Made by a program: the position numbers and the translations under genes. From the NCBI GenBank assembly GCA_038078835.1, contig JBBTQI010000005.1, positions 43,901-107,900 on the forward strand: a stretch of DNA of 64,000 nt. The letters run 5' to 3'. Positions within the stretch are counted from its first letter, which is position 1, and every line of letters begins with the position of its first letter. Under the pieces are notes generated by a model, which had not been told where the DNA came from, searched no databases, and worked only from the letters and a program-made list of their open reading frames with translations. The DNA comes from Patescibacteria group bacterium (lineage in GTDB: Bacteria; Patescibacteriota; UBA1384; XYA2-FULL-43-10; 1-14-0-10-43-13). Shown here one piece after another: positions 6,084 to 60,157 of the stretch.

Positions 6084-6113
6084 TGGATCCCCGATCGAGT
6101 CGGGGATGACAAC
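6084..6113. repeat. Hairpin repeat family H1, copy 1 (tggATCCCCGAtcgagTCGGGGATgacaac)
   Basis: 8-bp perfect stem; related copies at 15837, 19746-19855 and 42552. Confidence 0.5.
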
Positions 6114-6204: not shown

Positions 6205-6233
6205 TTGACAGTAACATCCTGAAGGCTTAATAT
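6205..6233 (+). promoter_or_regulatory. Near-consensus sigma70 promoter (TTGACA, 17 nt, TAATAT) for the coiled-coil gene; perfect DnaA-box 9-mer TTATCCACA lies at 6186..6194 just upstream
   Basis: TTGACAgtaacatcctgaaggctTAATAT followed by AAGGAG and ATG at 6252. Confidence 0.6.
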
Positions 6234-6251
6234 CTTATCATAAGGAGAAAA

Positions 6252-8683: not shown

Positions 8684-8775
8684 AATACTTCCTTTCCGTC
8701 TAGCAATCTAGTATTTAGTAGGCTAGCTAATTAGCTAACTTGCTAGCACGCTAACTTGCTGAATAACTATTTACT
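8684..8775 (-). promoter_or_regulatory. TAGC-rich promoter/leader module upstream of rplL, near-identical to the module upstream of rpmG
   Basis: Reverse complement matches 60055..60157 over about 90 nt including ...gattgctagacggaaaggaagtattATG. Confidence 0.5.
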
Positions 8776-9285
8776 TTCCCGATAATTACTTAAAACATTA
8801 ACCAACCCCCGAATGTTCCCGGCCAGGACATTAACCAGACCCGACATTGGCGCGGCAACTGTTCCCACGACTCGAGCATAAAGCTCTTCGCGCGACGGCA
8901 AAGCCGCCAGACGCCCTACTCCCTCAACATCAATAAAGCGGCGCCCCAAGAGACCGCCCAGAATCTCAAGAAATTCGTGGCTCTTGGTATAAGTATTTAT
9001 CTCTTTAGCCGGCGCAACCTCGTCGGCGTGGGCAAAAGCAATGGCGATCGGTTTATCAAAAATATCCTCCGGCATCTCGATGCCCTCTTCTCTTAAGGCA
9101 ATCCGAGCCAGAGAAGCCTTAACAACATGAAAATCAATCTGCTGCTGATGCAATTTGCGGCGCAACTCCTCGGTCTCGCTAACCTTTAATCCCTTGTAAT
9201 CAACAACAACAGCCGACTTGGCACCGGAAAATTCACTCTTAAGTCGCCGAAGCTCATCTGCTTTTTGTTCCTTTGTCTTTGCCAT
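8767..9285 (-). CDS. rplJ: 50S ribosomal protein L10
   Basis: Track ORF trimmed to MAKTKEQKADEL...; L10 fold motifs; lies upstream of rplL. Confidence 0.9.
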   Translation of the reverse strand: MAKTKEQKADELRRLKSEFSGAKSAVVVDYKGLKVSETEELRRKLHQQQIDFHVVKASLARIALREEGIEMPEDIFDKPIAIAFAHADEVAPAKEINTYTKSHEFLEILGGLLGRRFIDVEGVGRLAALPSREELYARVVGTVAAPMSGLVNVLAGNIRGLVNVLSNYRESK

Positions 9286-12117: not shown

Positions 12118-12853
12118 AGGGGACGGTTCTCTTTTAGATACAGTTTTACACTTTTTAAGTCTTTATCTTCCGATCTATCTTGTCTTGTTCTCTATAACGT
12201 TGAATGTCGCTACCCCAGATGGGTTTCCGATATGATTCCTCGATTATTTGAGCAACGAGCAATCCTTGGTAGTTGGTTTGTCGCTCCGCTTCGTTCTTTC
12301 CCATTGCCTCGTACATGAAATCAGGTGTGATAAGAGGATTTTTCTCACCCATAGAATAAAATCGATAACTGGAGTAAAGATACTCCTCTGGACTTTTTGC
12401 CAGATCGGCTCTGATTGGATTGAGTTCAATATATTTTCCGCACTGGATAAAGTAAGCATCTTTGCCAATAGTTTGGCTTTTAAAACGATCCTGCCAAAAG
12501 TGGCCCACCCAATTATATTTTTGTTGGTAATGGTGAAAATATGCCAAGTTTATTTTTTTCATAAAGACAGAGAACTCGCTGGCATGCTTTGTCTGAATCT
12601 GAAAATGGGTATGCGTTGGCATAAGACAATAATGATAGAGGTCAAAAGGGTGTTCTATCTTGTATTTCGCAAGTAATTCCAAATAGTACAAGTAGTCATC
12701 GGGCGACCTAAAGACAACACTGCGGTTATTGCCTCGCGTCATAATATGATAGTAACTTTGTGACAAGAGAAGCCTTTTTGCCCTGGGCATATAGCAATAA
12801 TACCAAGATTGACAAAAAAGTGTAATTTTGTAATCAAAAGAGAACCGTCCCCT
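12118..12853 (-). mobile_element. REP-associated (RAYT-like) / IS200-like Y1 transposase unit bounded by perfect 18-bp inverted repeats (aggggacggttctctttt / aaaagagaaccgtcccct)
   Basis: 18-bp perfect inverted repeat at 12118..12135 and 12836..12853 flanking the Y1 transposase gene; short repeat clusters outside each inverted repeat. Confidence 0.55.
12155..12790 (-). CDS. IS200/IS605-family Y1 (HuH) tyrosine transposase, RAYT-like
   Basis: Track ORF trimmed to MPRAKRLL; HuH motif LYHYCLMPTHTHF and ...WQDRFKS... catalytic Tyr region. Confidence 0.75.
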   Translation of the reverse strand: MPRAKRLLLSQSYYHIMTRGNNRSVVFRSPDDYLYYLELLAKYKIEHPFDLYHYCLMPTHTHFQIQTKHASEFSVFMKKINLAYFHHYQQKYNWVGHFWQDRFKSQTIGKDAYFIQCGKYIELNPIRADLAKSPEEYLYSSYRFYSMGEKNPLITPDFMYEAMGKNEAERQTNYQGLLVAQIIEESYRKPIWGSDIQRYREQDKIDRKIKT

Positions 12854-12892
12854 TTCCGCAGTCCCCTTTCCGCAAGCGTCCCCTTTCCGCAA
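12847..12892. repeat. Three tandem copies of gtcccctttccgca(a) just outside the right inverted repeat
   Basis: cgtcccctttccgca gtcccctttccgcaa gcgtcccctttccgcaa; gagtgagg-type repeats at the left end (12070-12120). Confidence 0.7.
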
Positions 12893-12951
12893 GCTTCCTG
12901 AGGCAGAATCAGTGATTGCTTTGTAGTTTAAAATTCTAAATTTGTTGAGCT

Positions 12952-13752
12952 TCATAGAATTATAGTTTGCTTTTCATATAATATTGGCAAAGCGTCCTGC
13001 CTCATACGAAATTTTGTGCCGTGGTTATGGCCGGTGCGGGCGTCGAAATCCACAAGAATTTTTCCTTCTTCCAGCGCTTTCAAAAATCCTTCAAAACTGA
13101 ATTTCTGCAACATCATCACTTTTGTGTAATGATAAAATTCTTTTTTCCGAACGATTTTGACTTCGGCTTGAACATAAAAACAGTTCAGCAATTTTGTTCC
13201 CGCTTTGTGTTTCAAGTCATCAAAACCCCAATACGGTTGTGGATTTAATTCACTTAGACCGACCCTCTTTTTGACTAATTTTTTCCAACCGGAATGTTTT
13301 TCAGCTATTTTTTTGCTGTTGAAAGAAATTAAAACCTTCTGCTCCTTTTTGTCTATCTTCACAAAAAACCCTCGGTCGGAAACCGATGAACCACAGATTG
13401 TTTGCCTAAAACTCATTTCTTCAGATTTATATTTTGTCCCGGCTTCTTGGTGCCCCCAGCCATAAAGGGGTAAAAGAATTTTTGGGACAAATCCTACTGC
13501 TCGAGGTGATGGCTCCATATGAAAAAGTGTTGTGAGAGAACAGGTATTTATCCTCTGGGTCTTGAGTTCCCACTCTGCTGCGTTTGGAATTGGTAAATTA
13601 TTTTCCTGTATCCCGAGTAAATCCTCAAGCGTATTACCAATTCCACCGCTATTACCATGTCTCGCATTTGGAATCCAACCCTTTTTAACAATTTCCTTGA
13701 ACTTTTCAATGAGTGATTCTTTGGAAAATAGTACCGGTTTCTTTATCATCAC
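12952..13752 (-). CDS. Type II restriction endonuclease, MvaI/BcnI-like
   Basis: Pattern matches recalled BcnI/MvaI blocks (GNTLEDLLGIQENN...EWELK..., LTTLFHMEP); about 40% GC versus about 50% genome; adjacent MTase. Confidence 0.65.
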   Translation of the reverse strand: MMIKKPVLFSKESLIEKFKEIVKKGWIPNARHGNSGGIGNTLEDLLGIQENNLPIPNAAEWELKTQRINTCSLTTLFHMEPSPRAVGFVPKILLPLYGWGHQEAGTKYKSEEMSFRQTICGSSVSDRGFFVKIDKKEQKVLISFNSKKIAEKHSGWKKLVKKRVGLSELNPQPYWGFDDLKHKAGTKLLNCFYVQAEVKIVRKKEFYHYTKVMMLQKFSFEGFLKALEEGKILVDFDARTGHNHGTKFRMRQDALPILYEKQTIIL

Positions 13753-13757
13753 GCTCC

Positions 13758-14510
13758 TTATATTAGCTTACCCTGAGCAGTATGTTTTTTTATTCTCTCT
13801 TCTGCCATTTTGCAGTACTCTGGCGATACATCTATTCCGATATAGTTCCGATTAAAATTAATCGCAGACAGAGCAGTCGTACCTGAACCCATAAATGGAT
13901 CGAGGACTACATTTGCATTTGTTGAGGAAATTATGCGGTTGATTAGCTTTACAGGAAAAGGTGCGGGGTGGCCATTTTTCATTTCTTGGGTAAATTCCCA
14001 AATATCACCATAAGCATTAGCCTTAGGAGACAGTTTAAATTTGGGCTTAGCAATCAAATAGATAACTTCGTAAGTCGGTAAAAAATATCCGGCGTTGAAG
14101 TTGAGCCCGCCTTTTCTTTTCCAAATGATAATTTGCCTTACAGGAAAGCCGCTAACTATATCTTGACGATCTTGCAAAAGTCCTGCTTGCACCCTCCATT
14201 TATGGTTATAAAAAATGGCTCCATTCTCGGGAATAATACGCATTGCCTCATTCAGAAATTCTCTTTGCCATTGAGCGTATAACTCGTGGGGCATATTGTC
14301 ATCATAATTTGCGTATCCTTTTTGCAAAGCAGCATTTGCCCATTTGCCGCCACGCCCATCTTTCATACCATTACCGGTTGAATTCTTTAAATTATATGGC
14401 GGTGAAGTGATTACCAAGTCAACTACTCCATTAGGAATCTGCTTCATCACTTCAACGACATCACCACAGATTATTTTGTTGATAAAATCATCCGGATATT
14501 TCATTTTCAC
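13758..14510 (-). CDS. Beta-class DNA N4-cytosine/N6-adenine methyltransferase (motif IV DLVITSPPY before motif I DPFMGSGTT)
   Basis: SPPY and FxGxG motifs in beta-class order; cognate MTase of the adjacent REase. Confidence 0.8.
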   Translation of the reverse strand: MKMKYPDDFINKIICGDVVEVMKQIPNGVVDLVITSPPYNLKNSTGNGMKDGRGGKWANAALQKGYANYDDNMPHELYAQWQREFLNEAMRIIPENGAIFYNHKWRVQAGLLQDRQDIVSGFPVRQIIIWKRKGGLNFNAGYFLPTYEVIYLIAKPKFKLSPKANAYGDIWEFTQEMKNGHPAPFPVKLINRIISSTNANVVLDPFMGSGTTALSAINFNRNYIGIDVSPEYCKMAEERIKKHTAQGKLI

Positions 14511-14627: not shown

Positions 14628-14701
14628 TGGTGGACTTAGCGAGAATCGGACTCGCGTCTCCACAATGCGAATGTGGCGTCGTACCACTAGACCATAAGCC
14701 C
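14628..14701 (-). tRNA. tRNA-Ala (anticodon CGC)
   Basis: 74 nt cloverleaf, G3:U70, anticodon loop TTCGCAT, encoded CCA. Confidence 0.8.
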
Positions 14702-14743: not shown

Positions 14744-15796
14744 TTAATTACCAGCCCCTAACTTTGCTTGCCACTTGAGCTCGGCTTCGATGAAGGGATC
14801 GATCTCGCCGAGTAAAACCTTATCGGGATCTTTGGATTCATAATTCGTCCGATGGTCCTTAACCAATTTATAGGGATGCAGGACGTAGGAGCGAATCTGA
14901 TTCCCCCACTCCGGCGCCGCAAATTCACCCCGGATCTCCTCGATCTTCTCCCGCCGCTGATCAAGCATCAGTTTGGCCAGACGGGAACGCAAAACCTTGA
15001 GGGCATTCTCCTTATTTTGGAGCTGACTTCGCTCGTTTTGGCAAGTGACAACAATGCCGGTCGGCAGGTGGGTCAGCCGCACCGCCGAATCAGTCGTGTT
15101 AACGGATTGGCCGCCGTGACCGCTGGCCCGAAAGACATCAACCCGCAGATCCTTGGGGTCAATACTTATCTCCCTGTCTGTTTCGATCTCGGGCAAAACC
15201 TCAACCAGCGCGAAGGAGGTTTGACGCAGGGCCTTGGCGTTAAAGGGCGACTGCCGCACCAGGCGATGGACACCGGACTCGCCCTTGAGCTTGCCAAAAA
15301 CGTAAGAGCCGGCAATCTCCAAGGTGGCACTTTTAATACCCGCCTCGCCGCCGCTTGACCGGTCAAGGATTTGGGCCGCCAGATTGTTCTGCTCGGCCCA
15401 GCGCAGATACATCTCAAAAAGCATCTCCGTCCAGTCCTGAGCATCAACGCCACCCGCGCCGGCATAGAAGTTAAGGAGGGCATTGTGATCGTCGTACTTG
15501 CCGCCAAGATAAGTATAAATCTCAAGCTCGGCGATCTCAGCGTGAAGCGCCGCCAGCTCCTCTGGCGAGGCAATTTGGGCAATCTCATAAATATCGTCAA
15601 ACTTTCTGATCTCTTCCCCGAGTTTCTTGAGTTCCTGCGACTTGGCCTGGGCCGTTTTTTCGTCCAACCAAAAATCAGACGATTGCATCTCTGCCTCGAT
15701 CGCCGCAACCATGGATTTCTTTTCATCAATTTTCAAAATGTCTCGCAACTCCTCGAGACGATTTTTGATGTCGGTCATACGATCACATTCTATCAA
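14744..15796 (-). CDS. prfB: Peptide chain release factor 2 (no frameshift site present)
   Basis: GGQ and SPF motifs; single uninterrupted frame (alternative start at 15778). Confidence 0.85.
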   Translation of the reverse strand: MIECDRMTDIKNRLEELRDILKIDEKKSMVAAIEAEMQSSDFWLDEKTAQAKSQELKKLGEEIRKFDDIYEIAQIASPEELAALHAEIAELEIYTYLGGKYDDHNALLNFYAGAGGVDAQDWTEMLFEMYLRWAEQNNLAAQILDRSSGGEAGIKSATLEIAGSYVFGKLKGESGVHRLVRQSPFNAKALRQTSFALVEVLPEIETDREISIDPKDLRVDVFRASGHGGQSVNTTDSAVRLTHLPTGIVVTCQNERSQLQNKENALKVLRSRLAKLMLDQRREKIEEIRGEFAAPEWGNQIRSYVLHPYKLVKDHRTNYESKDPDKVLLGEIDPFIEAELKWQAKLGAGN

Positions 15797-15836
15797 ATCT
15801 GAAACAAAAAATCACCCTTCGACTGCTTGCTATTGT

Positions 15837-15866
15837 TGGATCCCGCATCAAGTGCGGGATAACAAA
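15837..15866. repeat. Hairpin repeat family H1, copy 2 (ggATCCCGCAtcaagTGCGGGATaacaaaa)
   Basis: 8-bp stem; in prfB-DUF11 intergenic region. Confidence 0.5.
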
Positions 15867-15897
15867 AGGGTAAATCAGGGTGACTTTTATCGTTATT

Positions 15898-15935
15898 CAC
15901 CTCCGAGGTGTTTGGGCACATTCATCTCGGAGGTG
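15898..15935. repeat. 38-nt palindromic element, intergenic copy (CACCTCCGAGGTG-TTTGGGCACATTCAT-CTCGGAGGTG)
   Basis: 10-13 bp arms; homologous copy inside cysS at 23249..23286. Confidence 0.6.
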
Positions 15936-15941
15936 TTTTAA

Positions 15942-18017
15942 CTACATTCCCAGGATGTCGTTGGCGGCGCCGAGAACTTCGAGTTGGCCGCTAATAAGGC
16001 GGCGATACTTGACGTAAGTTCCGGCAATACCGGCCATCATCGTTGCCAGAAAGCTGGCCCCGGCGGCGGCGCCGCTTGGCGGCAAAACGGGTGTCGGCGG
16101 AGCAGGCGGCGCCAACGCGGCCTTAACTTTAGTTTTGGCAATACTGGTCAGCGTGATCTTGTCAAAAGTCAGGGTGACAGTGTTAACCAGGACTTCGTCG
16201 GGGGCTAGAGTGGGAGCAAGAACAGCTCGAAACTTAATGTAGCCCGACTCATCCGGCCCAATCATATCCAGCTTAAAGCCGACACCGGTAATACCGTTGA
16301 TAATGGTCTTCTCCGCGCCGCCGGCAATCGACAAAACGGTTGTGCCCTCAAGGTATTGAACATTTGGCGGCAGAGTGTCGACAAACTTGACGAGATCGGC
16401 AAAAGCATTGCCCCTGTTGCTAAAATCAATCTTATATTCCAGAATATCACCGGGGAAAGCCTCGTTCTCTTTAGCAAAATCACTTTGGCTCGCCGTCACA
16501 TTCCGAACCGTTTTATCCAGCGCCAGCTCAACTTTCTTGGCCGGCCGCACCAGTGTGATCAGAATCTCGTCGCCGTATTTGTTGTAGAGCTTGTCGTCGA
16601 AGCTAAAACCGCGCGCCGGGTTAGCCGGCAGAGGATCCTTAACTTTAACGGTAAATTTCCGCTCGATTGTCGCGCCGGGATCTAACGTCACGGTCGGATA
16701 TTTGACCGCTCCGCCAGCGACCGTACCGCCATCCGAAACAGATACAACATTGGCATATTCCAGAATATCGGCAATATTATCTTCGACTTGATATTCCAGC
16801 GGCGCAACGCCGTTATTTTTGGTAATCAGCGCATATTCAATCTCATCACCGGCCTTGGCCGTTGCCGTAGAGACGTTCCCGTCTCGAGGCGCCGCCTGCT
16901 CACCCGAAGTCAAATTCACAGCCCGTTTGTGCTGTTCAACATTTGCCGCCGCCGGCAAAATCTTAACCTGCGCCGTGTCGGTAAGCGTAATCGCACCGGC
17001 AATCAGCTGGGCCGTATTGGTAACGATCGTCGGGGCGGAGACGTTGGCGACAACTTTGGCTTGAAAGCGAAGAGAGTGGGTCTCGCCGGGATTTAAGGGA
17101 TGCCCCATCGGCCAGCCGCCCCAAAAAAACTGGCCGGCATTCGGATCGTCGGGCAATGGCGTAACCGTTGTGCCGGCAATATGAGCCAGCGTACCGGGAA
17201 CGTATTGAAGTTCCGGCGGCAGAAGATCGCTCAGCAGAATATTATCAACCGGAGCCGAGCCGGGGTTAGTCGCAGCCACATCGAACTCGACAACCTCGCC
17301 AAAGAGGGCGGCAGTGAGCTCGGAGAAATTTGTCTCTGCCTTGACGGGAGCAATATTGCGAACGGTCTTGTTGAGATCGAGATTAATCGCCTGCGGCATC
17401 GCCCTAAACTTAAAGGTGATAAAACCGGCAAAGTCCCAACAGCCATTGATATCACCAATGTTAGCGGAAAAACCATCAAGAGTTGGCGCGACTATAATCG
17501 GCTGGGGATTAGTCGAACCCAAATCGGTTGAATTAGGAAACCAGTTTACGGAGTTAAGATCAAGACCAATATCGGCATTTGCGTTTAGCGCCACCGTCAA
17601 GCCCGGCCGGCCGACAACGGTACCGTCAGGCAGAATTGTATCAGTAACGGTCTCCGCGTTATCGGCCGAAATTGCCGCCTCAAAGAAAGCGACTTTGTTT
17701 GTCGTCTGCTTTGGCGCCGCCACGGTGATAGTGGTGTTGCGGGCCACCGTGCCCTCAATAATATTATGATAATAGATGACACCAAGAAACTCATCGCCGA
17801 CAGTGCCAACTACCGGATCGCGCGGCACAACTTGCGGCGGCACGGCCGAGATGTTGCGGCCAGTAAAGAGCTCGTGATCGCCAACAAGGCCGTTAAAGCG
17901 CGGTGTGTCAGCCCGGCTTGAAAGTGCCGGCCAGACCGCAAGAGAGAGAAGCGACAACAGTACAGAGGCGCCAACAATCTTTTTTAGCTTTGTCGCAAGA
18001 TATTGACCGTAACTCAT
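15942..18017 (-). CDS. Large surface protein with DUF11-type conserved repeat domains, signal peptide and LPXTG-like C-terminal sorting signal (LPPSG + hydrophobic + KYRR)
   Basis: 691 aa; LDKTVRN... repeat starts; C-terminus ...VLPPSGAAAGASFLATMMAGIAGTYVKYRRL... Confidence 0.7.
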   Translation of the reverse strand: MSYGQYLATKLKKIVGASVLLSLLSLAVWPALSSRADTPRFNGLVGDHELFTGRNISAVPPQVVPRDPVVGTVGDEFLGVIYYHNIIEGTVARNTTITVAAPKQTTNKVAFFEAAISADNAETVTDTILPDGTVVGRPGLTVALNANADIGLDLNSVNWFPNSTDLGSTNPQPIIVAPTLDGFSANIGDINGCWDFAGFITFKFRAMPQAINLDLNKTVRNIAPVKAETNFSELTAALFGEVVEFDVAATNPGSAPVDNILLSDLLPPELQYVPGTLAHIAGTTVTPLPDDPNAGQFFWGGWPMGHPLNPGETHSLRFQAKVVANVSAPTIVTNTAQLIAGAITLTDTAQVKILPAAANVEQHKRAVNLTSGEQAAPRDGNVSTATAKAGDEIEYALITKNNGVAPLEYQVEDNIADILEYANVVSVSDGGTVAGGAVKYPTVTLDPGATIERKFTVKVKDPLPANPARGFSFDDKLYNKYGDEILITLVRPAKKVELALDKTVRNVTASQSDFAKENEAFPGDILEYKIDFSNRGNAFADLVKFVDTLPPNVQYLEGTTVLSIAGGAEKTIINGITGVGFKLDMIGPDESGYIKFRAVLAPTLAPDEVLVNTVTLTFDKITLTSIAKTKVKAALAPPAPPTPVLPPSGAAAGASFLATMMAGIAGTYVKYRRLISGQLEVLGAANDILGM

Positions 18018-18033
18018 CTTACCTCACGTAGTA

Positions 18034-19593
18034 TTAATTAATGATATCGGGAAAAGCTGGAAGCGGCACAATAACCGAAATCGCCGCACTGCTCGAAATC
18101 GGTGCGATTCCCTGGGCGCTGGCGTAAGCGGTGTTAATTAGCTCCTCGCCATTATTGGGACAGCCGATAATCTTAACTTGAAGGGTAATATCGGCGCTGG
18201 TGCCGACCGGAATGGTGCCCAAGGCCAAACCGGCGGGGGTAAAGATATCGTCTCCACTGGGAACAATCTGGCCGCCAAGACGAACGCTGCCGAGCCCCGG
18301 AATAGTGTTTTTGGGGATAATATCGCGCACGACCAGACCGGGCAGATCGGCACTGCCGGTGTTGGCAATGGTGATTTTATAGGTAACAATATCATTTAGC
18401 CGGAAAGTCGGTCCGCCGATAACCGTCTTATCGATCTTTAAGTTCGGCACCCCGACAAAAACATGAATGGTCGCCTGATCGCGATCCTGTTCGATATTGT
18501 TCACATAAAGGATGGCCAGATTAACCAAGTGAGACCAGCCCGCCGGAAAGCTCGGGGATAACTTAACCCGGTAGGTAATCGTCAAGAGGCCAGCCGGTCC
18601 GGGTAGAACATCGGGCAGAGCCAGGCCGCCGGTAAATATAGTCTCGCCGCCGCCAAGCAGATTGCCATTAATATCTTTGATTTGCAGCGAACCGGGAACA
18701 TAAGCCGAGAGCGGCGGCAGATGGTCAACGACCGCAACATTTGTCGCCACGGTCTGGCCGTCATTGCGAACCCGAAGCCGGTAGATTGCCTCCCCGCCCG
18801 GAGCAGCCTCTGTTTCTTTGAGTGAAAAATCGGGATTGGCCGCGGCCGGCGAAACAAATTTATCCATCACCAGCTGGGCCGGCGCCAGAACCTTTACTTT
18901 AAAGTAAACAAAACCGGAGTACTGCCAGCAGCCGGCAATATCACCAATGCTGATGCCGTAAGAGTTGGTGGCGATGCCGTCGGGCAGGTCGGAAATAATC
19001 AAATTATCAAGATTGTTCAGATCACGGGTCATAAGTTTGGTGGAACCCGGCATGTACTCAACCCGGGCCGGCGTATTTAAATTAATCGTACCGCCGGAGA
19101 GACCAATGGTGCCCAATCCGGGCACGACGGTGTCGGTAATATAGGGAGTCTCCTGCGACCAGAGATAGCTGGCGGCGACAATCTGATTGGAAACGCCGGA
19201 GGGAATGTCGACGCGAACCGAGGTCTGGTGAGCAACCGTGCCGGGGACACCGTTATGAAAATAAAGCAAAAAAGCAACTTCGTCACCGATATCGGCCGAG
19301 ACCGGATCAACCCAGTCCGTCCGCTTGGTCACGTTGCTCACCCGCAGCATCTCCAGATCGCCCTGGTTGGAACCATCGGGCGCCGGACCAAGGAAGTTAA
19401 AACGAGGACTTGTTCCCAGGCTGGGGGCACTCTGAGTGTTGGCCTGAACACCCTGATCAATCGAGCGCGGTGCGGCAACAGCCAGTAAGAGGGCCGAAAT
19501 TGCCACCGAACCCAAAATGATCCGCTTGACCTTCGTCCAGAGAATCAGTGATTCGATTGAGGGTCGCTTTCGTTTAAATATTCGACTAAGCAT
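18034..19593 (-). CDS. DUF11-repeat surface protein, paralog of the upstream gene
   Basis: 519 aa; signal peptide; shared blocks (IAGCWQYSGFVYFKVKV versus INGCWDFAGFITFKFRA). Confidence 0.7.
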   Translation of the reverse strand: MLSRIFKRKRPSIESLILWTKVKRIILGSVAISALLLAVAAPRSIDQGVQANTQSAPSLGTSPRFNFLGPAPDGSNQGDLEMLRVSNVTKRTDWVDPVSADIGDEVAFLLYFHNGVPGTVAHQTSVRVDIPSGVSNQIVAASYLWSQETPYITDTVVPGLGTIGLSGGTINLNTPARVEYMPGSTKLMTRDLNNLDNLIISDLPDGIATNSYGISIGDIAGCWQYSGFVYFKVKVLAPAQLVMDKFVSPAAANPDFSLKETEAAPGGEAIYRLRVRNDGQTVATNVAVVDHLPPLSAYVPGSLQIKDINGNLLGGGETIFTGGLALPDVLPGPAGLLTITYRVKLSPSFPAGWSHLVNLAILYVNNIEQDRDQATIHVFVGVPNLKIDKTVIGGPTFRLNDIVTYKITIANTGSADLPGLVVRDIIPKNTIPGLGSVRLGGQIVPSGDDIFTPAGLALGTIPVGTSADITLQVKIIGCPNNGEELINTAYASAQGIAPISSSAAISVIVPLPAFPDIIN

Positions 19594-19745
19594 TCTATCC
19601 TTTCCTTGGCGCCAATGGTGTTTGTGCTTTGGCGCTCTAAATTATCATAAGCAAGTAATAATTGTAAAGCGAGAACTCCATATTTTATTCGCTCTATAAT
19701 TTAATTCTATTCCCAAGCAATAATTTTTCAATTATTACTGCTGTC

Positions 19746-19855
19746 GTGCAGTTGTCATCCTCAACCTGATTCAGAAATCACTGTATGGATCCTACATCCC
19801 ATTCGACTGCGCTCAGGGTCTGAGTGAAATCGAAGACAAGTGCGGGATGACAGAG
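19746..19855. repeat. Extended/split H1-family element (gtgcagttgtcatcc ... about 75 nt ... aagtgcgggatgacagag)
   Basis: Termini match the compact copy at 42552..42580; internal tggatcctacatcc also matches the family consensus. Confidence 0.4.
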
Positions 19856-19898
19856 AAGGAGAATGACACAACGTGGGTAATTATTGCCTCGGAATAGT

Positions 19899-19930
19899 CC
19901 AGCACCACTCGCCGCAGCGAGTGGTGCTGG
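19899..19930. other. Perfect 14-bp stem / tetraloop hairpin (ccagcaccactcgc-cgca-gcgagtggtgctgg) 28 nt downstream of the GC-island-2 gene; no U-tract
   Basis: Perfect inverted repeat seen directly. Confidence 0.5.
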
Positions 19931-19957
19931 GAAACGGATCTTCCCTCCTTTCTCCTA

Positions 19958-20752
19958 TTACTGGATGCCGCCGTTGAGGTTGCTCGGCGGCGGCAGAGGC
20001 GGAGCAGTTGGTCCGTCATAACCTGGTAGGGTGGTGCCGCCTACACCACTCCAACTACCCGGCACGTTCAGCGCCGGATCCCAGGACAGCGGCGGCGGCC
20101 CGATCCCGGACTTAAACGTCCCCGCTTGCTTGGGATTGATGATCTTCGTCTGGGACGGCACCCGCCGTCCCAGAATAGCCGCCGTCCGGATGAGCGGACG
20201 GGTTGTGACCGTCCGCGTTCCGACAGCCACGGTTCGAGCTGGGGCAGAGGGCTTCCAACCAACCATCGGCACCCGAGCGCGTTCCTGCGGCGATATCACC
20301 GTCACCTGTGCCGGCGGCGCAGTGACATTCACTACCGGTGCTGGACAGGGTTGTAGCGACGGCGCTGGAGCGGGTTGAACTCCCGGCGTCAGCGTAGCCG
20401 ACACCGAGAGAAACGTCTCTGCCTTCTTGGTCTCGCCCCAGCAGCCCCAAGAGGGGTTGCCGCAGTCGAGCCGGCGGACGATGCTGTACTTGCCGGCGGC
20501 GCAGGTGTACTCCACCCACGTTCCGGCCAAGTGCACGGCGTTGTGTGGTTTGGGCCGACCCCTCTCCCAGCGCCAAACTCCACCGACAACCGCCGCCGGC
20601 AGGCGGCCGTAGAAGTGGCCGGCCGGGGGCTGCCGCGCCGGCCCTGACCAACCCGGCCAGGGATCCCAGCAATAGATGGCGGCATCGGGCAGGGCCGCTT
20701 GTGCCACCCCACCGATGCCGACGATTAACGCCGCAAGCACTATCACTCTCAC
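19958..20752 (-). CDS. Secreted Cys- and Pro-rich hypothetical protein (GC-rich island 2), GTG start
   Basis: Track ORF trimmed to GTG (VRVIVLAALIVGIGGVAQA signal peptide) preceded by AAGGAGGTGGG; about 65% GC. Confidence 0.5.
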   Translation of the reverse strand: MRVIVLAALIVGIGGVAQAALPDAAIYCWDPWPGWSGPARQPPAGHFYGRLPAAVVGGVWRWERGRPKPHNAVHLAGTWVEYTCAAGKYSIVRRLDCGNPSWGCWGETKKAETFLSVSATLTPGVQPAPAPSLQPCPAPVVNVTAPPAQVTVISPQERARVPMVGWKPSAPARTVAVGTRTVTTRPLIRTAAILGRRVPSQTKIINPKQAGTFKSGIGPPPLSWDPALNVPGSWSGVGGTTLPGYDGPTAPPLPPPSNLNGGIQ

Positions 20753-20763
20753 TGCCCACCTCC

Positions 20764-22110
20764 TTATCGCCCAACCCAACCTGTGGCCGTGATGGTCAGG
20801 GTTGGCGTCGGGCTTGATGCTGAAAGCTCGAACCAGCCGGAACAGGTCCGGCCGGTGCCGACGATGGAGTGCCGCCACTTGTACTTGCCTGGCGGCAGTT
20901 CGATTGGCGGCGCGTTGGGATTGGCACAGGAGCGCGCCGGACAGACCGGCTGACCCATCACGCTCAGGATCTCGATCGTCTGCACCGACAGGGCGCAGTT
21001 CATCTGGTTAATGATCCTGATTGTAAGGCGGATACTCCCGGTCGGAACGTTTGGCACATCCGATGACGGCTGGCCGGCCTCGACCCGAGACACTCTAGTC
21101 TTGAGGTTGGCAATGTCGCCCTCAACCTGCTCCAACCTGGTGCCGATGCCGTCGACCTTGACGTTCAACGCACCAAACCCGTTCTGTATCTGCTGGGAGA
21201 GATCTCCCGCCGGCAGATGGTCGGCCGGATGGGCGGACGCGCCTTCCGGTAATGGCAGCTCGGTTAGCCCGGCTGTTGCTGTTCCCTCAGCAAGCAACGC
21301 CTCGAGGCGTTGCGCTTCCTGCTCCTGCGTCATGAAGCCGCCCCGGGCAAACTTGGCATTACTGAGGTGTTCTCGCATGGCCGACGTAACGGCCACTCTC
21401 CATGCCTGCTTCCAGAGCCTAAACCTCGGGTCACAGTCAGCCTGGTCCTCGTCGATCAAGTACGGGTCGGTCAGGCCGGGCGGGAGCGGACAGATACCGC
21501 TAATGTATCGCTTACTGCTCGCGGTTTGGTCGATCACGTCAAACCCGGACCCGCTGACGTTGGCCGTCCTTCCCCGGTCAACGAAACGAAACAGTAACAG
21601 GTATCTCCTTTCTCTCCGCACGACCGAGAAAGACCGGACCAGGAAGTCACAGTTGACGCCGGCTGTGATCGACTCGGTTTCGATCACATACCGGTTTCGG
21701 TCAATCTTCTGCCACTTGTCGTCAGCGGATGCTCCGCGGATCACGACCTCCGGCCGGGTATCAACGACATCACCCCTCGAGTTAACGATGGTGAGGTCGG
21801 CCCGCAGATAGCGGAACATTGGCCAGAAGACAGGGTCATACTTGATGACCGTGATCGCCCCCGGGTCCCACAGCACATCGGCACCATCTCCGACCGCGGA
21901 ACGGCTCGCGCTTAACTTGACGGCGATGCCGAAAGTCTCGGCAGTGACCTTCTCTCTCGCGATCAGCTTACTGACCTCTTCGCTCTCGACAACCAGTTCA
22001 GTGGTGCCGAGAAAACGAGCCTGCACGGGCATGATGCTGACCGGCACTACGAGGGCCGTCAGCACCAACACAGAAAGCCAGATGGCTCTTGTGCCTCTCA
22101 TTTTACCCAT
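20764..22110 (-). CDS. Secreted hypothetical protein, 448 aa (GC-rich island 2)
   Basis: Signal peptide MRGTRAIWLSVLVLTALVVPVSIMPVQA; about 65% GC. Confidence 0.55.
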   Translation of the reverse strand: MGKMRGTRAIWLSVLVLTALVVPVSIMPVQARFLGTTELVVESEEVSKLIAREKVTAETFGIAVKLSASRSAVGDGADVLWDPGAITVIKYDPVFWPMFRYLRADLTIVNSRGDVVDTRPEVVIRGASADDKWQKIDRNRYVIETESITAGVNCDFLVRSFSVVRRERRYLLLFRFVDRGRTANVSGSGFDVIDQTASSKRYISGICPLPPGLTDPYLIDEDQADCDPRFRLWKQAWRVAVTSAMREHLSNAKFARGGFMTQEQEAQRLEALLAEGTATAGLTELPLPEGASAHPADHLPAGDLSQQIQNGFGALNVKVDGIGTRLEQVEGDIANLKTRVSRVEAGQPSSDVPNVPTGSIRLTIRIINQMNCALSVQTIEILSVMGQPVCPARSCANPNAPPIELPPGKYKWRHSIVGTGRTCSGWFELSASSPTPTLTITATGWVGR

Positions 22111-22198
22111 CCCTCCCTTCCCCTTGCGGGGCGAATATCACGCCTGAAACCTCGCCCCGCTGGGGATAGGGCGGATCGAGCGTGAAATATCTTCTGCC

Positions 22199-22236
22199 CA
22201 CCTGGAAGATGAATGTGACCAAACATCTTCCAGGTG
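22199..22236. other. 13-bp stem hairpin (cacctggaagatg-13 nt-catcttccaggtg) in the 5' region of island 2; a second hairpin gcggggcga/tcgccccgc lies at 22126-22160
   Basis: Inverted repeats seen directly. Confidence 0.45.
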
Positions 22237-22699
22237 AGATTCATATGTAAGGTACCCCCGCCAAACCTGACCCCAGATCGGCCGGGCGGGAGAATTCGCT
22301 TTGGCAAGCGACGGGTACCCTCGCACTTCATCCCCCGCCAAAGATAATTAGGACAGAGCAAGTAAATTTATTTCATTATGATAAGCTTGTCAAGCTGTCA
22401 CTGATCTGCCGGAAACAGATAGCAGGTACCCCGGATGATCAGACAGAGAATTTATGATGGCAGGTGCAGTAAAAAACAGTACACCCGGCCTTTGGCTTGA
22501 TTTTGACCTTTGACATTTGAGATTTGCGATAACACCTGCTATTATGCTTTGCCGCCCTTTAATTCAGCCAGGAAGATGGCGAGGAATAATAGAGGCCGGC
22601 TAGGCCAAGCCCAGGCAATTTGTGGGGCTATCAATGCCAACCGACCCGTAAAACCTATCATCCTAATTTCCCAGTCTTCCCAGCCGAGTTAGAAAACGG

Positions 22700-22795
22700 C
22701 AAGAACCTTATAATTTAGCAAGTTAGCATTTTAGCAATTTAGCTAACTAGCTAGCGTGCTAATCTGCTAGCAAGCTACTTGTATCTTGGTTGTTG
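22700..22795. repeat. TAGC-rich module, looser copy (gcaagttagc...tagctagcgtgctaa...gctagcaagc)
   Basis: Shares vocabulary with the rplL/rpmG upstream modules. Confidence 0.35.
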
Positions 22796-22898
22796 AAATG
22801 GTCCTGGCAGTAAAAAAACAAAAGACGAACCACCTGTTGTGGGCTATTTCTGAGTCCTCTCCCGCCACTCTCAAAAACAAAGCTACCTTAGCATTAAT

Positions 22899-24272
22899 TT
22901 AGATTTTTGTCAATAAGTAGCCCGTTTTTTTGTCCTCGATCCGCCACCCCTTCCCTTCGAGTTCTTGGCGGATTTTATCAGATAGAGCATAGTCTTTTTG
23001 CCGGCGAGCCTCTTCTCTCTTGGCGGCTAATTTTTTGATCTCGGGCGGGATGGCAAGTTCTTCTTTTTCTCCTAATTTGAGCCCTAAAACCTCATCCATT
23101 TTTTGCGCCGTCGCAGTCCTAATTTCGGCCGAAACGGATTCGTCTCGCGCCATCTCCCAAAGAGTCGCCAGCCCGCCGGGCGTGTCCAGGTCGTCTGAGA
23201 TACGATCGTAAAATTTATTGAGGTAATCCTGGTTAACCTCTGCGCCACCACCTCGGAGGTGTTTAGGCACATTCACCTCCGAGGTGATCTCCGGCATCAA
23301 CCGATTCAACCGCTCGCGGGCATTTTTGGCCGCTTCGAGACCAGCCCAGGTAAAGTTCAGCTTGGTTCGATAGTGCGCTCCAAGCACGAGATAGCGAAAA
23401 TCCAGCGGCGAAAAGCCGCGCTCCGTCAAATCCTTAAGATTATAGACATTGCCCAAACTTTTGGCCATCTTCTGGCTGTCAACCAATAAATGTTCGCCAT
23501 GGACCCAAAAACGGACAAAGTCTTTGCTGCTCAGCGCCTCCGATTGAGCAATTTCATTTTCGTGATGAGGAAAGATCAGATCAACCGCGCCGGTGTGAAT
23601 ATCAATCGTCTGACCCAGAGTCTCCCCGGCCATAACAGAACACTCAATGTGCCAACCGGGCCGGCCCCGGCCAATCTTTGTCTCCCAATAAATATCGCCG
23701 TCATCTTTATCCCAAGCCTTCCAGAGAACAAAGTCGGCGGGGTTTTCCTTGGTATATTCATCCTGGCTAACACGCGCCCCCGCCCTAATCCCGGCCCGAT
23801 CCAGTTTGGCAAGCTTGCCGTAATCCTTGAACTTATCAATAGAGAAGTAAACAGAACCGTCTTCGCCCCGATAAGCAAAACCGCGCCGCAGAAGTTCAGC
23901 AACAAAGTCAGCCATCCTCTCAACATACGCTGTTGCCCGGGTAACGAGATCGGGGAGGAGAATATTAAGCGCGGAGAGATCCTCAAAAAAAATCTTCTCA
24001 TAGCGCCGGGTGAGCTCCCGCAGCCTGGTCTTGTCGCCGCCGCTCTTTTTAATCGTCTTGTCATCAACGTCGGTCACATTCATAACGTGCTTAACGCGAA
24101 AATCGTTAGCCAAGAGGGTTCGCTTCAAGACATCATTAAAAAGATAGGTCCTAAGGTTCCCGATATGGGCAACATCGTAGACGGTCGGGCCGCAGCTGTA
24201 TAAGGTGGCAAGGCGATTATGGAGCGGCGCAAACTCCTCCAAGCGATTGGTCAGGGTGTTGTAAAACTTCAT
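22899..24272 (-). CDS. cysS: Cysteinyl-tRNA synthetase
   Basis: HIGN and KMAKSLGN class I motifs; CysS-like throughout. Confidence 0.9.
   Translation of the reverse strand: MKFYNTLTNRLEEFAPLHNRLATLYSCGPTVYDVAHIGNLRTYLFNDVLKRTLLANDFRVKHVMNVTDVDDKTIKKSGGDKTRLRELTRRYEKIFFEDLSALNILLPDLVTRATAYVERMADFVAELLRRGFAYRGEDGSVYFSIDKFKDYGKLAKLDRAGIRAGARVSQDEYTKENPADFVLWKAWDKDDGDIYWETKIGRGRPGWHIECSVMAGETLGQTIDIHTGAVDLIFPHHENEIAQSEALSSKDFVRFWVHGEHLLVDSQKMAKSLGNVYNLKDLTERGFSPLDFRYLVLGAHYRTKLNFTWAGLEAAKNARERLNRLMPEITSEVNVPKHLRGGGAEVNQDYLNKFYDRISDDLDTPGGLATLWEMARDESVSAEIRTATAQKMDEVLGLKLGEKEELAIPPEIKKLAAKREEARRQKDYALSDKIRQELEGKGWRIEDKKTGYLLTKI
23249..23286. repeat. 38-nt palindromic element embedded in-frame in cysS (13-bp perfect arms cacctcggaggtg/cacctccgaggtg, loop tttaggcacatt), encoding TSEVNVPKHLRGG
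   Basis: Perfect 13-bp inverted repeat; homolog of intergenic copy at 15898..15935. Confidence 0.6.
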
Positions 24273-24290
24273 ATCTAGAACTTAACAGGA

Positions 24291-24602
24291 TTAGACCGTG
24301 GCGGCAAGGTTTTCATCCTCCAACCCGAAGCTCTCCATCTCAAAGGAGTCAATGAGGTCAAGATCGTCGTCATCCAAATCATCAAACTTTTTAAAGAGAC
24401 GCTTCCCCGACCGAGACCGCGGCAGACTCCCCGCTTCATCCTCTCCCTCGTCATCCAAATCATCAGCCGAATCATCATCGCTCGCCGCCTCGATAATGCC
24501 TCTGTCCAGAGCCGGATAACCGCAAATCTCGCAAACCGGCCCGGGCGCATCGATCCCGCAATTCTCGCAAAAGTACTGTTCCATCTCTTCTTTCTCCGTC
24601 AC
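24291..24602 (-). CDS. Small acidic zinc-ribbon protein (CxxC...CxxC)
   Basis: 103 aa; AAGGAGG RBS; promoter TTGACA-17-ATAAAAT with AT-rich TGGGATTT repeats upstream. Confidence 0.5.
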   Translation of the reverse strand: MTEKEEMEQYFCENCGIDAPGPVCEICGYPALDRGIIEAASDDDSADDLDDEGEDEAGSLPRSRSGKRLFKKFDDLDDDDLDLIDSFEMESFGLEDENLAATV

Positions 24603-41784: not shown

Positions 41785-41870
41785 AAGCTCTAGTCTAGCA
41801 GCACATTAGCAAGCTAGCATATTAGCTGATTAGCTATCTTACTAACACGCTAACCACTGATTGGTTATTG
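41785..41870. repeat. TAGC-rich module, looser copy between pilA and pilD
   Basis: Reverse complement carries ttagcgtgYtag...tagctaatYagcta...gctagc. Confidence 0.35.
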
Positions 41871-42551: not shown

Positions 42552-42580
42552 TGTCATCCCCGACCCGATCGGGGATGACA
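42552..42580. repeat. Hairpin family H1, compact copy (tgtcatccccga-cccga-tcggggatgaca), between pilC and pilA
   Basis: 12-bp perfect stem; on minus strand reads cgGGgatgacaaTTGCAc (weak sigma54-like GG/TTGCA spacing). Confidence 0.5.
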
Positions 42581-60054: not shown

Positions 60055-60157
60055 AGTATTATGTATCAAGCAGTTATTCAGCAAGTTAGCGTGCTAGCAA
60101 GTTAGCTAATTAGCTAGCCTGCTAAGGTACTAGATTGCTAGGCGGAAAGGAAATATT
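60055..60157 (+). promoter_or_regulatory. TAGC-rich promoter/leader module upstream of rpmG (near-identical to rplL upstream module)
   Basis: ...cagcaagttagcgtgctagcaagttagctaattagctagcctgctaaggtactagattgctaggcggaaaggaaatattATG. Confidence 0.5.

Follow-up and report, generated by a model that had tools for sequence, protein, structure and literature searches.

What is a perfect palindrome doing inside the gene of an essential aminoacyl-tRNA synthetase, translated and in frame, and how might it have come to be there? The window analysed here (the whole stretch of 64,000 nucleotides) comes from a Patescibacteria genome of Hainich groundwater, and its cysS gene contains such a sequence. The initial annotation had reported this 38-nt palindrome, together with a near-identical second element between prfB and a DUF11 gene. 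The first report is confirmed: the arms of the cysS element pair at 13 of 13 positions and the reading frame that contains it is uninterrupted. The second element is at the site and in the gene context originally given, with its right arm slightly misparsed. A third copy had escaped that reading altogether (Table 1). We think it probable that the three sequences are copies of a short palindromic DNA repeat of the REP-like kind, tolerated in cysS as a translated passenger.

Table 1. Positions of the hairpin copies and of the genes referred to in the text
Feature	Position in window	Strand	Remarks
Y1 transposase gene	12155..12790		NF047646 (REP-associated tyrosine transposase) is the best-matching model (E 5e-18)
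prfB	14744..15796	-	on the other side of the copy A spacer
Copy A of hairpin repeat	15898..15935	+	intergenic; loop TTTGGGCACATT; one G.T in stem
DUF11/CLIPPER surface-protein gene	15942..18017	-	stop codon adjoins copy A
448-aa secreted-protein gene	20764..22110	-	downstream of copy C
Copy C of hairpin repeat	22199..22236	- (opposite to A and B)	intergenic leader; loop TTTGGTCACATT on the minus strand
cysS	22899..24272	-	intact 457-aa ORF that contains copy B
Copy B of hairpin repeat	23249..23286	+ (loop reads TTTAGGCACATT on the plus strand; defines orientation)	in frame within cysS

Three copies of one hairpin

The repeat unit, as we would define it, is 38 nt long: a stem of 13 bp closed by a loop of 12 nt that is conserved. 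Copy B is CACCTCGGAGGTG-TTTAGGCACATT-CACCTCCGAGGTG; copy A is CACCTCCGAGGTG-TTTGGGCACATT-CATCTCGGAGGTG, with 12 Watson-Crick pairs and the one G.T making up its stem; copy C, reported by the repeat finder, is CACCTGGAAGATG-AATGTGACCAAA-CATCTTCCAGGTG, with CACCTGGAAGATG/CATCTTCCAGGTG as its arms. Once copy C is reverse-complemented, all three align without gaps. Each copy begins with CACC and ends with GGTG, 10 of the 12 loop positions are invariant (consensus TTTRGKCACATT), and the family pattern was written as CACCT-N8-TTTNGNCACATT-N8-AGGTG. The surroundings are dissimilar. Copy A follows the DUF11/CLIPPER stop codon at a distance of 2 nt and precedes the start of prfB by 101 nt; copy C precedes that of the 448-aa secreted-protein gene by 88 nt, within the 788-nt spacer after cysS and with a promoter-like site (22393-22365) upstream of it. 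The flanks of the three copies have no mutual similarity, and homology ends at the foot of the hairpin. No target-site duplication flanks any of the three, and no flanking tetranucleotide is conserved across them. The neighbouring genes are all on the minus strand.

The match between copies A and B is not a matter of chance: a degenerate pattern of 25 nt matches these two sites and no others, and in 100 dinucleotide-preserving shuffles it matches nothing. The suspicion that the similarity might be no greater than that of shuffled sequence, with no further copy to be found, is thus set aside by these shuffles and by the third copy. A covariance model of the family (R1) gives 64-67 bits to the three copies and at most 14.5 bits to everything else in the window and in five loci. 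Recurrence across independent assemblies excludes an assembly artefact: the cysS copy is identical in three of them (ENA ERZ1292626, ERZ1292632 and Logan ERR3858116), and both intergenic copies recur in each of two ENA samples. The identical CysS protein is also encoded on the 117.8-kb ENA/NCBI contig Hain_H43_02um_R3_33 (ERZ1292635), of part of which the window is the reverse complement.

Pairing is standard in all 39 stem cells (13 pairs in each of three copies), and in 4 of the 13 stem pairs both sides have changed with pairing kept. Sliding the partners by one to three columns lowers pairing to 41-49%. With three sequences to compare, the covariation score is matched by 15 of 500 shuffles, and the covariation in the stem is accordingly no more than suggestive of a hairpin that has been maintained.

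The copy in cysS as a probable translated insertion

The host protein has 100% identity to the 'cysteine--tRNA ligase' that NCBI lists for a MAG of a Patescibacteria group bacterium. It aligns end to end with solved CysRS structures and keeps the residues that are invariant among its homologues, including C27, C211, H236, E240 and K268-M269-x-K271-S272; going by these retained residues, the enzyme is presumably functional. Read in the cysS frame, copy B runs from the third base of I329 through codons 330-341 (TSEVNVPKHLRG) to the first base of G342; the encoded peptide, (I)TSEVNVPKHLRG(G), is residues 329-342 and comes some 57 residues past KMAKS. The protein reads TSEVNVPKHLRGG across the element. 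Three of the six reading frames of copy B are open, as read directly from its sequence.

Alignment of 32 homologues places the element in the sole hypervariable stretch between the RERLxR helix and the Yxx(F) helix. The segment between conserved anchors measures 50 aa in this CysS; among the 103 homologues that have both anchors the mode is 39-40 aa (49 proteins), which makes the loop some 10 aa longer than the homologue mode, as had been anticipated for a lineage-specific insertion. The element's peptide is found in this loop in none of 120 listed homologues, and hence no orthologue among them carries it on non-palindromic DNA. The AlphaFold2 model of CysS has a mean pLDDT of 85.7; at residues 329-343, between confident helices 309-325 and 348-359, pLDDT is below 50, and the loop is predicted to be disordered. 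The nearest non-identical CysS among 5.8 billion proteins is only 62% identical, so that there is no empty site to show. That the cysS copy is a lineage-specific, in-frame insertion in a tolerant loop is nevertheless well supported.

On the account that we favour, an insertion of about 12-13 codons, by chance in frame and without stop codons, would have entered the disordered stretch that joins two helices beyond the catalytic domain. In that position the element would be translated as a neutral passenger peptide that does not disable the enzyme, and the structural tolerance of the loop would be the filter that lets insertions of this kind survive.

A resemblance at the edge of the element should be mentioned. 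The native codons that directly follow it, GCA GAG GTT AAC (AEVN; GCAGAGGTTAAC), resemble the TCG GAG GTG AAT (SEVN; TCGGAGGTGAAT) of the element itself, with 8 of 12 bases identical (minus-strand reading, 23230-23248 against 23270-23285). The likeness may be due to microhomology where the element went in, or it may be coincidence.

DNA unit or RNA signal

Hairpins next to genes bring RNA functions to mind. The copies might act as 3' stabilisers or terminators, or as regulators in the leader of the surface-protein operon, with the cysS copy serving as a translational pause or regulatory site. REPs beside stop codons are known to affect mRNA (PMC3733652); copy A is placed just after a stop codon, where one relative (L029) has a canonical terminator hairpin, and copy C is in a probable 5' leader. 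The folds are also very stable (-20 to -29 kcal/mol): -27.9 kcal/mol for the RNA of copy B (z -5.6 against shuffles), -29.2 kcal/mol for copy C (z -8.0), and for copy A -19.7 kcal/mol on the minus strand and -27.0 on the plus strand. The orientation of the copies relative to transcription is not conserved, however, copy C being opposite to A and B. No U run follows any copy on the transcribed strand, and a terminator scan lists none of the three; past copy A the minus strand, the transcribed one, reads AAUAACGAUAAAAG, and copy A does not qualify as an intrinsic terminator. There is no Rfam match to the hairpins: only tRNAs pass the gathering score, and a search over 15700-24400 with E up to 1 returns two chance-level snoRNA matches, neither of which overlaps a hairpin. 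Syntenic relatives lack an equivalent element. We regard a function as RNA hairpins as quite improbable. In RNA the loop would read AAUGUGCCYAAA in copies A and B and UUUGGUCACAUU in copy C. Since the loop is conserved in both orientations relative to transcription, the unit would appear to act at the level of DNA rather than as an RNA motif.

A DNA-level unit need not be a hairpin. The arms could instead be paired 13-bp near-palindromic half-sites, 25 bp apart, in duplex DNA that is bound by a dimeric regulator or a nucleoid protein, and each arm of copies A and B is indeed itself a near-palindrome (CACCTC-S-GAGGTG). In copy C 3-4 positions of each arm are altered in such a way that complementarity between the arms is kept, while the self-symmetry of each arm and its identity with A and B are reduced; this pattern fits a hairpin and not a sequence-specific duplex site. 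One of the copies, moreover, is within an ORF. Binding sites of this kind strike us as a very remote prospect.

A role in Shine-Dalgarno/anti-Shine-Dalgarno pairing, which the CACCTCC and GGAGGTG of the arms might bring to mind, was also considered and is ruled out by copy C, which has neither.

To see whether copy C might be an ancestral leader structure, the leader region that contains it was aligned with those of two relatives (L029 and L061), which are highly divergent; only a short GGTACCC-TC-CTTGC motif is common to them. In the form GGTACCC(G/A)TC(G/T)CTTGC it is found at ~22290-22320 of the window (minus strand) and at ~10455-10480 of L061, and more loosely at ~13660-13690 of L029, in leaders of orthologous secreted-protein operons. 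All three leaders also have a small hairpin just before the ribosome-binding site, and motif and hairpin together may constitute a conserved leader structure. The orthologous operon leader of L029 has, in addition, a long imperfect hairpin (~13530-13610), the foot of which, CACCTCCAC...GTGGAGGTG, resembles that of the hairpin family of the window; beyond the foot no likeness between them was found.

Copy number, and possible movement or local copying

The same genome was searched for further copies over ~84 kb, that is, the window and 10 kb on each side of it. Neither the pattern nor covariance model R1 finds another copy in the additional ~20 kb, or in the syntenic loci of relatives. In the GTDB representative genomes a first pattern has no match, and a second has 14 chance-level matches with no family member among them (one is a weak hairpin with 9 of 13 pairs, in an unrelated conserved locus). 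In JGI metagenomes the corresponding figures are none and 28, the latter again at chance level and without a family member, and in IMG/VR neither pattern has a match. The suggested hunt for more copies, and for their placement in coding sequence, has thus produced one more, which is intergenic, and no others in the ~84 kb or in the public collections scanned.

The initial annotation spoke of a mobile element. That the palindrome is repeated stands, with three copies; its mobility is presumed, from discrete boundaries, three unrelated contexts and two orientations, in copies that all lie within 7.4 kb (15898-23286). From these features we infer that a piece of DNA able to form a hairpin has moved, most probably in single-stranded form. 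A Y1/RAYT-type transposase may have been responsible, as may template switching at hairpins, which needs no transposase.

A purely local process may also account for the three copies. One hairpin would have arisen in situ, for example within cysS or in the leader of the operon for surface proteins, and hairpin-primed template switching or ectopic gene conversion, in the course of replication or repair, would have carried copies of it to two neighbouring sites, with no genome-wide family ever having existed. The clustering just described, with no copy in the remaining ~76 kb examined or in public collections, is what such an origin would predict, and the 8 of 12 bases shared by GCAGAGGTTAAC and TCGGAGGTGAAT could have served as microhomology for a template switch. 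Against it, the copies share the hairpin exactly and nothing of their flanks, whereas gene conversion usually drags flanks along; several pairing-preserving changes separate the copies, which are therefore not very recent; and dispersed hairpin families of related genomes do enter the same CysS loop, as described below. We consider such a local origin unlikely.

A Y1 transposase in the window

The window encodes one Y1 transposase whose best match is to a RAYT model, with a score of 65.4 bits that is below the 80-bit NCBIfam cut-off. On either side of the gene there are inverted repeats of 39 nt (12118-12156 and 12815-12853), which have no relation to the hairpin. A transposase flanked by inverted repeats has been called a 'TIRYT' arrangement (PMC3733652). 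In REP-RAYT systems the RAYT gene is flanked by REPs of its own family, which is not what is found here. The transposase occurs at a single locus, and the restriction-modification segment to which it belongs is absent from syntenic L029, in which an M50B peptidase gene directly follows prfB. Its candidacy as mobiliser of the hairpin is unsupported on these three grounds: unrelated flanking repeats, a single locus, and an island that L029 lacks.

The segment itself (12118-14510) is low in GC (~40%) and adjoins a tRNA-Ala gene (14628-14701); besides the RAYT-like Y1 transposase it encodes an N4/N6 methyltransferase and an MvaI/BcnI-type endonuclease. Three short tandem repeats of GTCCCCTTTCCGCA lie beside the transposase, at 12847-12895.

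The same loop in related genomes

The DNA of five long-loop CysS homologues from relatives (L029, L030, L059, L060 and L061) was examined, and in all five the extra loop residues are encoded by in-frame, hairpin-forming DNA of other families (fold z-scores against shuffles from -6.1 to -1.2). In L029 two inverted hairpins, TGTCATTCCCGA..TCGGGAAT / ATCCCCGT..ACGGGGATGACA, form a doublet of 70 nt in the loop, an arrangement that resembles a REPIN. The doublet is also present, in frame, in the neighbouring Dus gene; the peptides are CHSRPDRESTNSLLVDPRLHGDD and CHSRENGNLLLVDPRLRGDD. In L030 one hairpin family is likewise found in both CysS and Dus, and certain families are common to more than one genome. 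Translated palindromic repeats are thus recurrent in this clade of Patescibacteria, and the CysS loop is a repeated landing site for them. It is because hairpin repeats of unrelated families have been admitted to this loop in other Patescibacteria of the clade that structural tolerance is proposed as the filter. Reuse of the one loop might, beyond tolerance, reflect targeted insertion.

These comparisons invite a wider proposal: that Patescibacteria (CPR) generally carry several REP/REPIN-like hairpin families, which have repeatedly and independently entered the CysS inter-helix loop and loops of Dus in frame, making up a phylum-wide and undescribed counterpart of the RPEs. We put the chances of this at somewhat less than even.

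A second hairpin family, GGATCCCCGA-N5-TCGGGGATGACA, is present in the window at 6087-6111, 15840-15864 (33 nt from copy A) and 42552-42580, and at 6215-6245 of another locus (L023); it is intergenic at every site. A family related to these GGATCCCCGA..TCGGGGATGACA hairpins makes up the in-frame doublets of CysS and Dus in L029.

Translated palindromic repeats offer a route by which selfish or structure-prone DNA adds peptides to essential proteins. The main examples so far are from Rickettsia and a few REP-rich bacteria; the present one is from an ultra-small, streamlined genome of groundwater Patescibacteria. Most of the interest lies in the comparison across Patescibacteria, in which a single loop of CysS, and Dus as well, is host to different hairpin repeats time and again. 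The annotation and alignment of CPR proteins are affected, in that loop 'insertions' are encoded by repeats, and hairpin inserts are natural markers for strain typing. The question that is raised is by what means such repeats spread where transposases are as scarce as in these genomes.

Comparison with known repeats

The resemblance to Rickettsia palindromic elements that had been suggested for the cysS palindrome is apt as a functional analogy. In both cases a repeated palindrome is found both between genes and in frame within the ORF of a functional housekeeping gene, at a tolerant region. Like the RPEs, the repeat has several copies in its genome (three in ~84 kb), one of them coding and in frame in an intact ORF, that of cysS, the function of whose product is judged from its sequence. 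In the relatives the likeness extends to several housekeeping genes, CysS and Dus, that carry the same hairpin family. The repeat is not, for all that, a member of the RPEs: its 38 nt, its ~12 aa and its host in the Patescibacteria set it apart from RPE-1 to RPE-8 in size and lineage. RPE-1 is roughly 100-150 nt long and encodes 30-50 aa.

The likeness to REPs is structural. This is a GC-rich stem-loop within their 20-40 nt range, found in both orientations, near stop codons and without target-site duplication, and occasionally translated; a Y1 transposase with its best match to a RAYT model is encoded in the same window. It differs from the GTAG/CGTC-tagged REPs in having neither GTAG nor CGTC as an end tag (its ends are CACC/GGTG) and, as far as the ~84 kb searched goes, in its three clustered copies, where such REPs are numerous and dispersed through the genome. 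Nor is there a cognate RAYT as in REP-RAYT systems, the Y1 gene of the window being part of a foreign restriction-modification island. With bacterial MITEs (Correia/NEMIS, ERIC, RUP) the repeat shares the short non-coding unit with inverted-repeat ends that lands in or near genes; it departs from them in length (38 nt against 70-300 bp), in lacking a target-site duplication, and in that one hairpin makes up the whole of it, with no core between terminal repeats.

Intragenic REPs, translated ones outside Rickettsia among them, have been described from Opitutus terrae, Thauera, Thioalkalivibrio and R. conorii (PMC3733652); those of O. terrae, Thauera and R. conorii are of the GTAG/CGTC type. The novelty that had been claimed for the cysS element therefore holds for the Patescibacteria, for which a limited literature search found no report of translated palindromic repeats, and not for translated intragenic palindromes outside Rickettsia as such.

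Other features of the locus

Copies A and C, which are complementary at 79% over 39 nt, were also considered as the terminal inverted repeats of a 6.3-kb mobile island. This is ruled out by the four-gene surface-protein block, which is syntenic beside cysS and prfB in both L029 and L061. Within the window, positions 20001-22000 have a GC content of 62.8%, against ~50% elsewhere, and contain a proline-rich 306-aa ORF as well as the gene of the 448-aa secreted protein; the block is nonetheless syntenic in the relatives.

Arrays of an 8-nt periodic, TAGC-containing motif (for example TTAGCAAG and TTAGCTAA) are found at 8705-8777, 22705-22785, 41788-41868 and 60060-60148, one of them just downstream of cysS. 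Two stretches of these arrays, 8715-8768 and 60072-60125, are 98% complementary over 54 nt, and after each of them come an identical ribosome-binding site and start, GGAAAGGAAATATTATGGCCAAAGAAG. According to the gene tables of the locus, the GGAAAGGAAATATTATGGCCAAAGAAG sites are upstream of rplL (L7/L12) and rpmG (L33), and the arrays have the look of upstream or promoter modules that highly expressed genes have in common.
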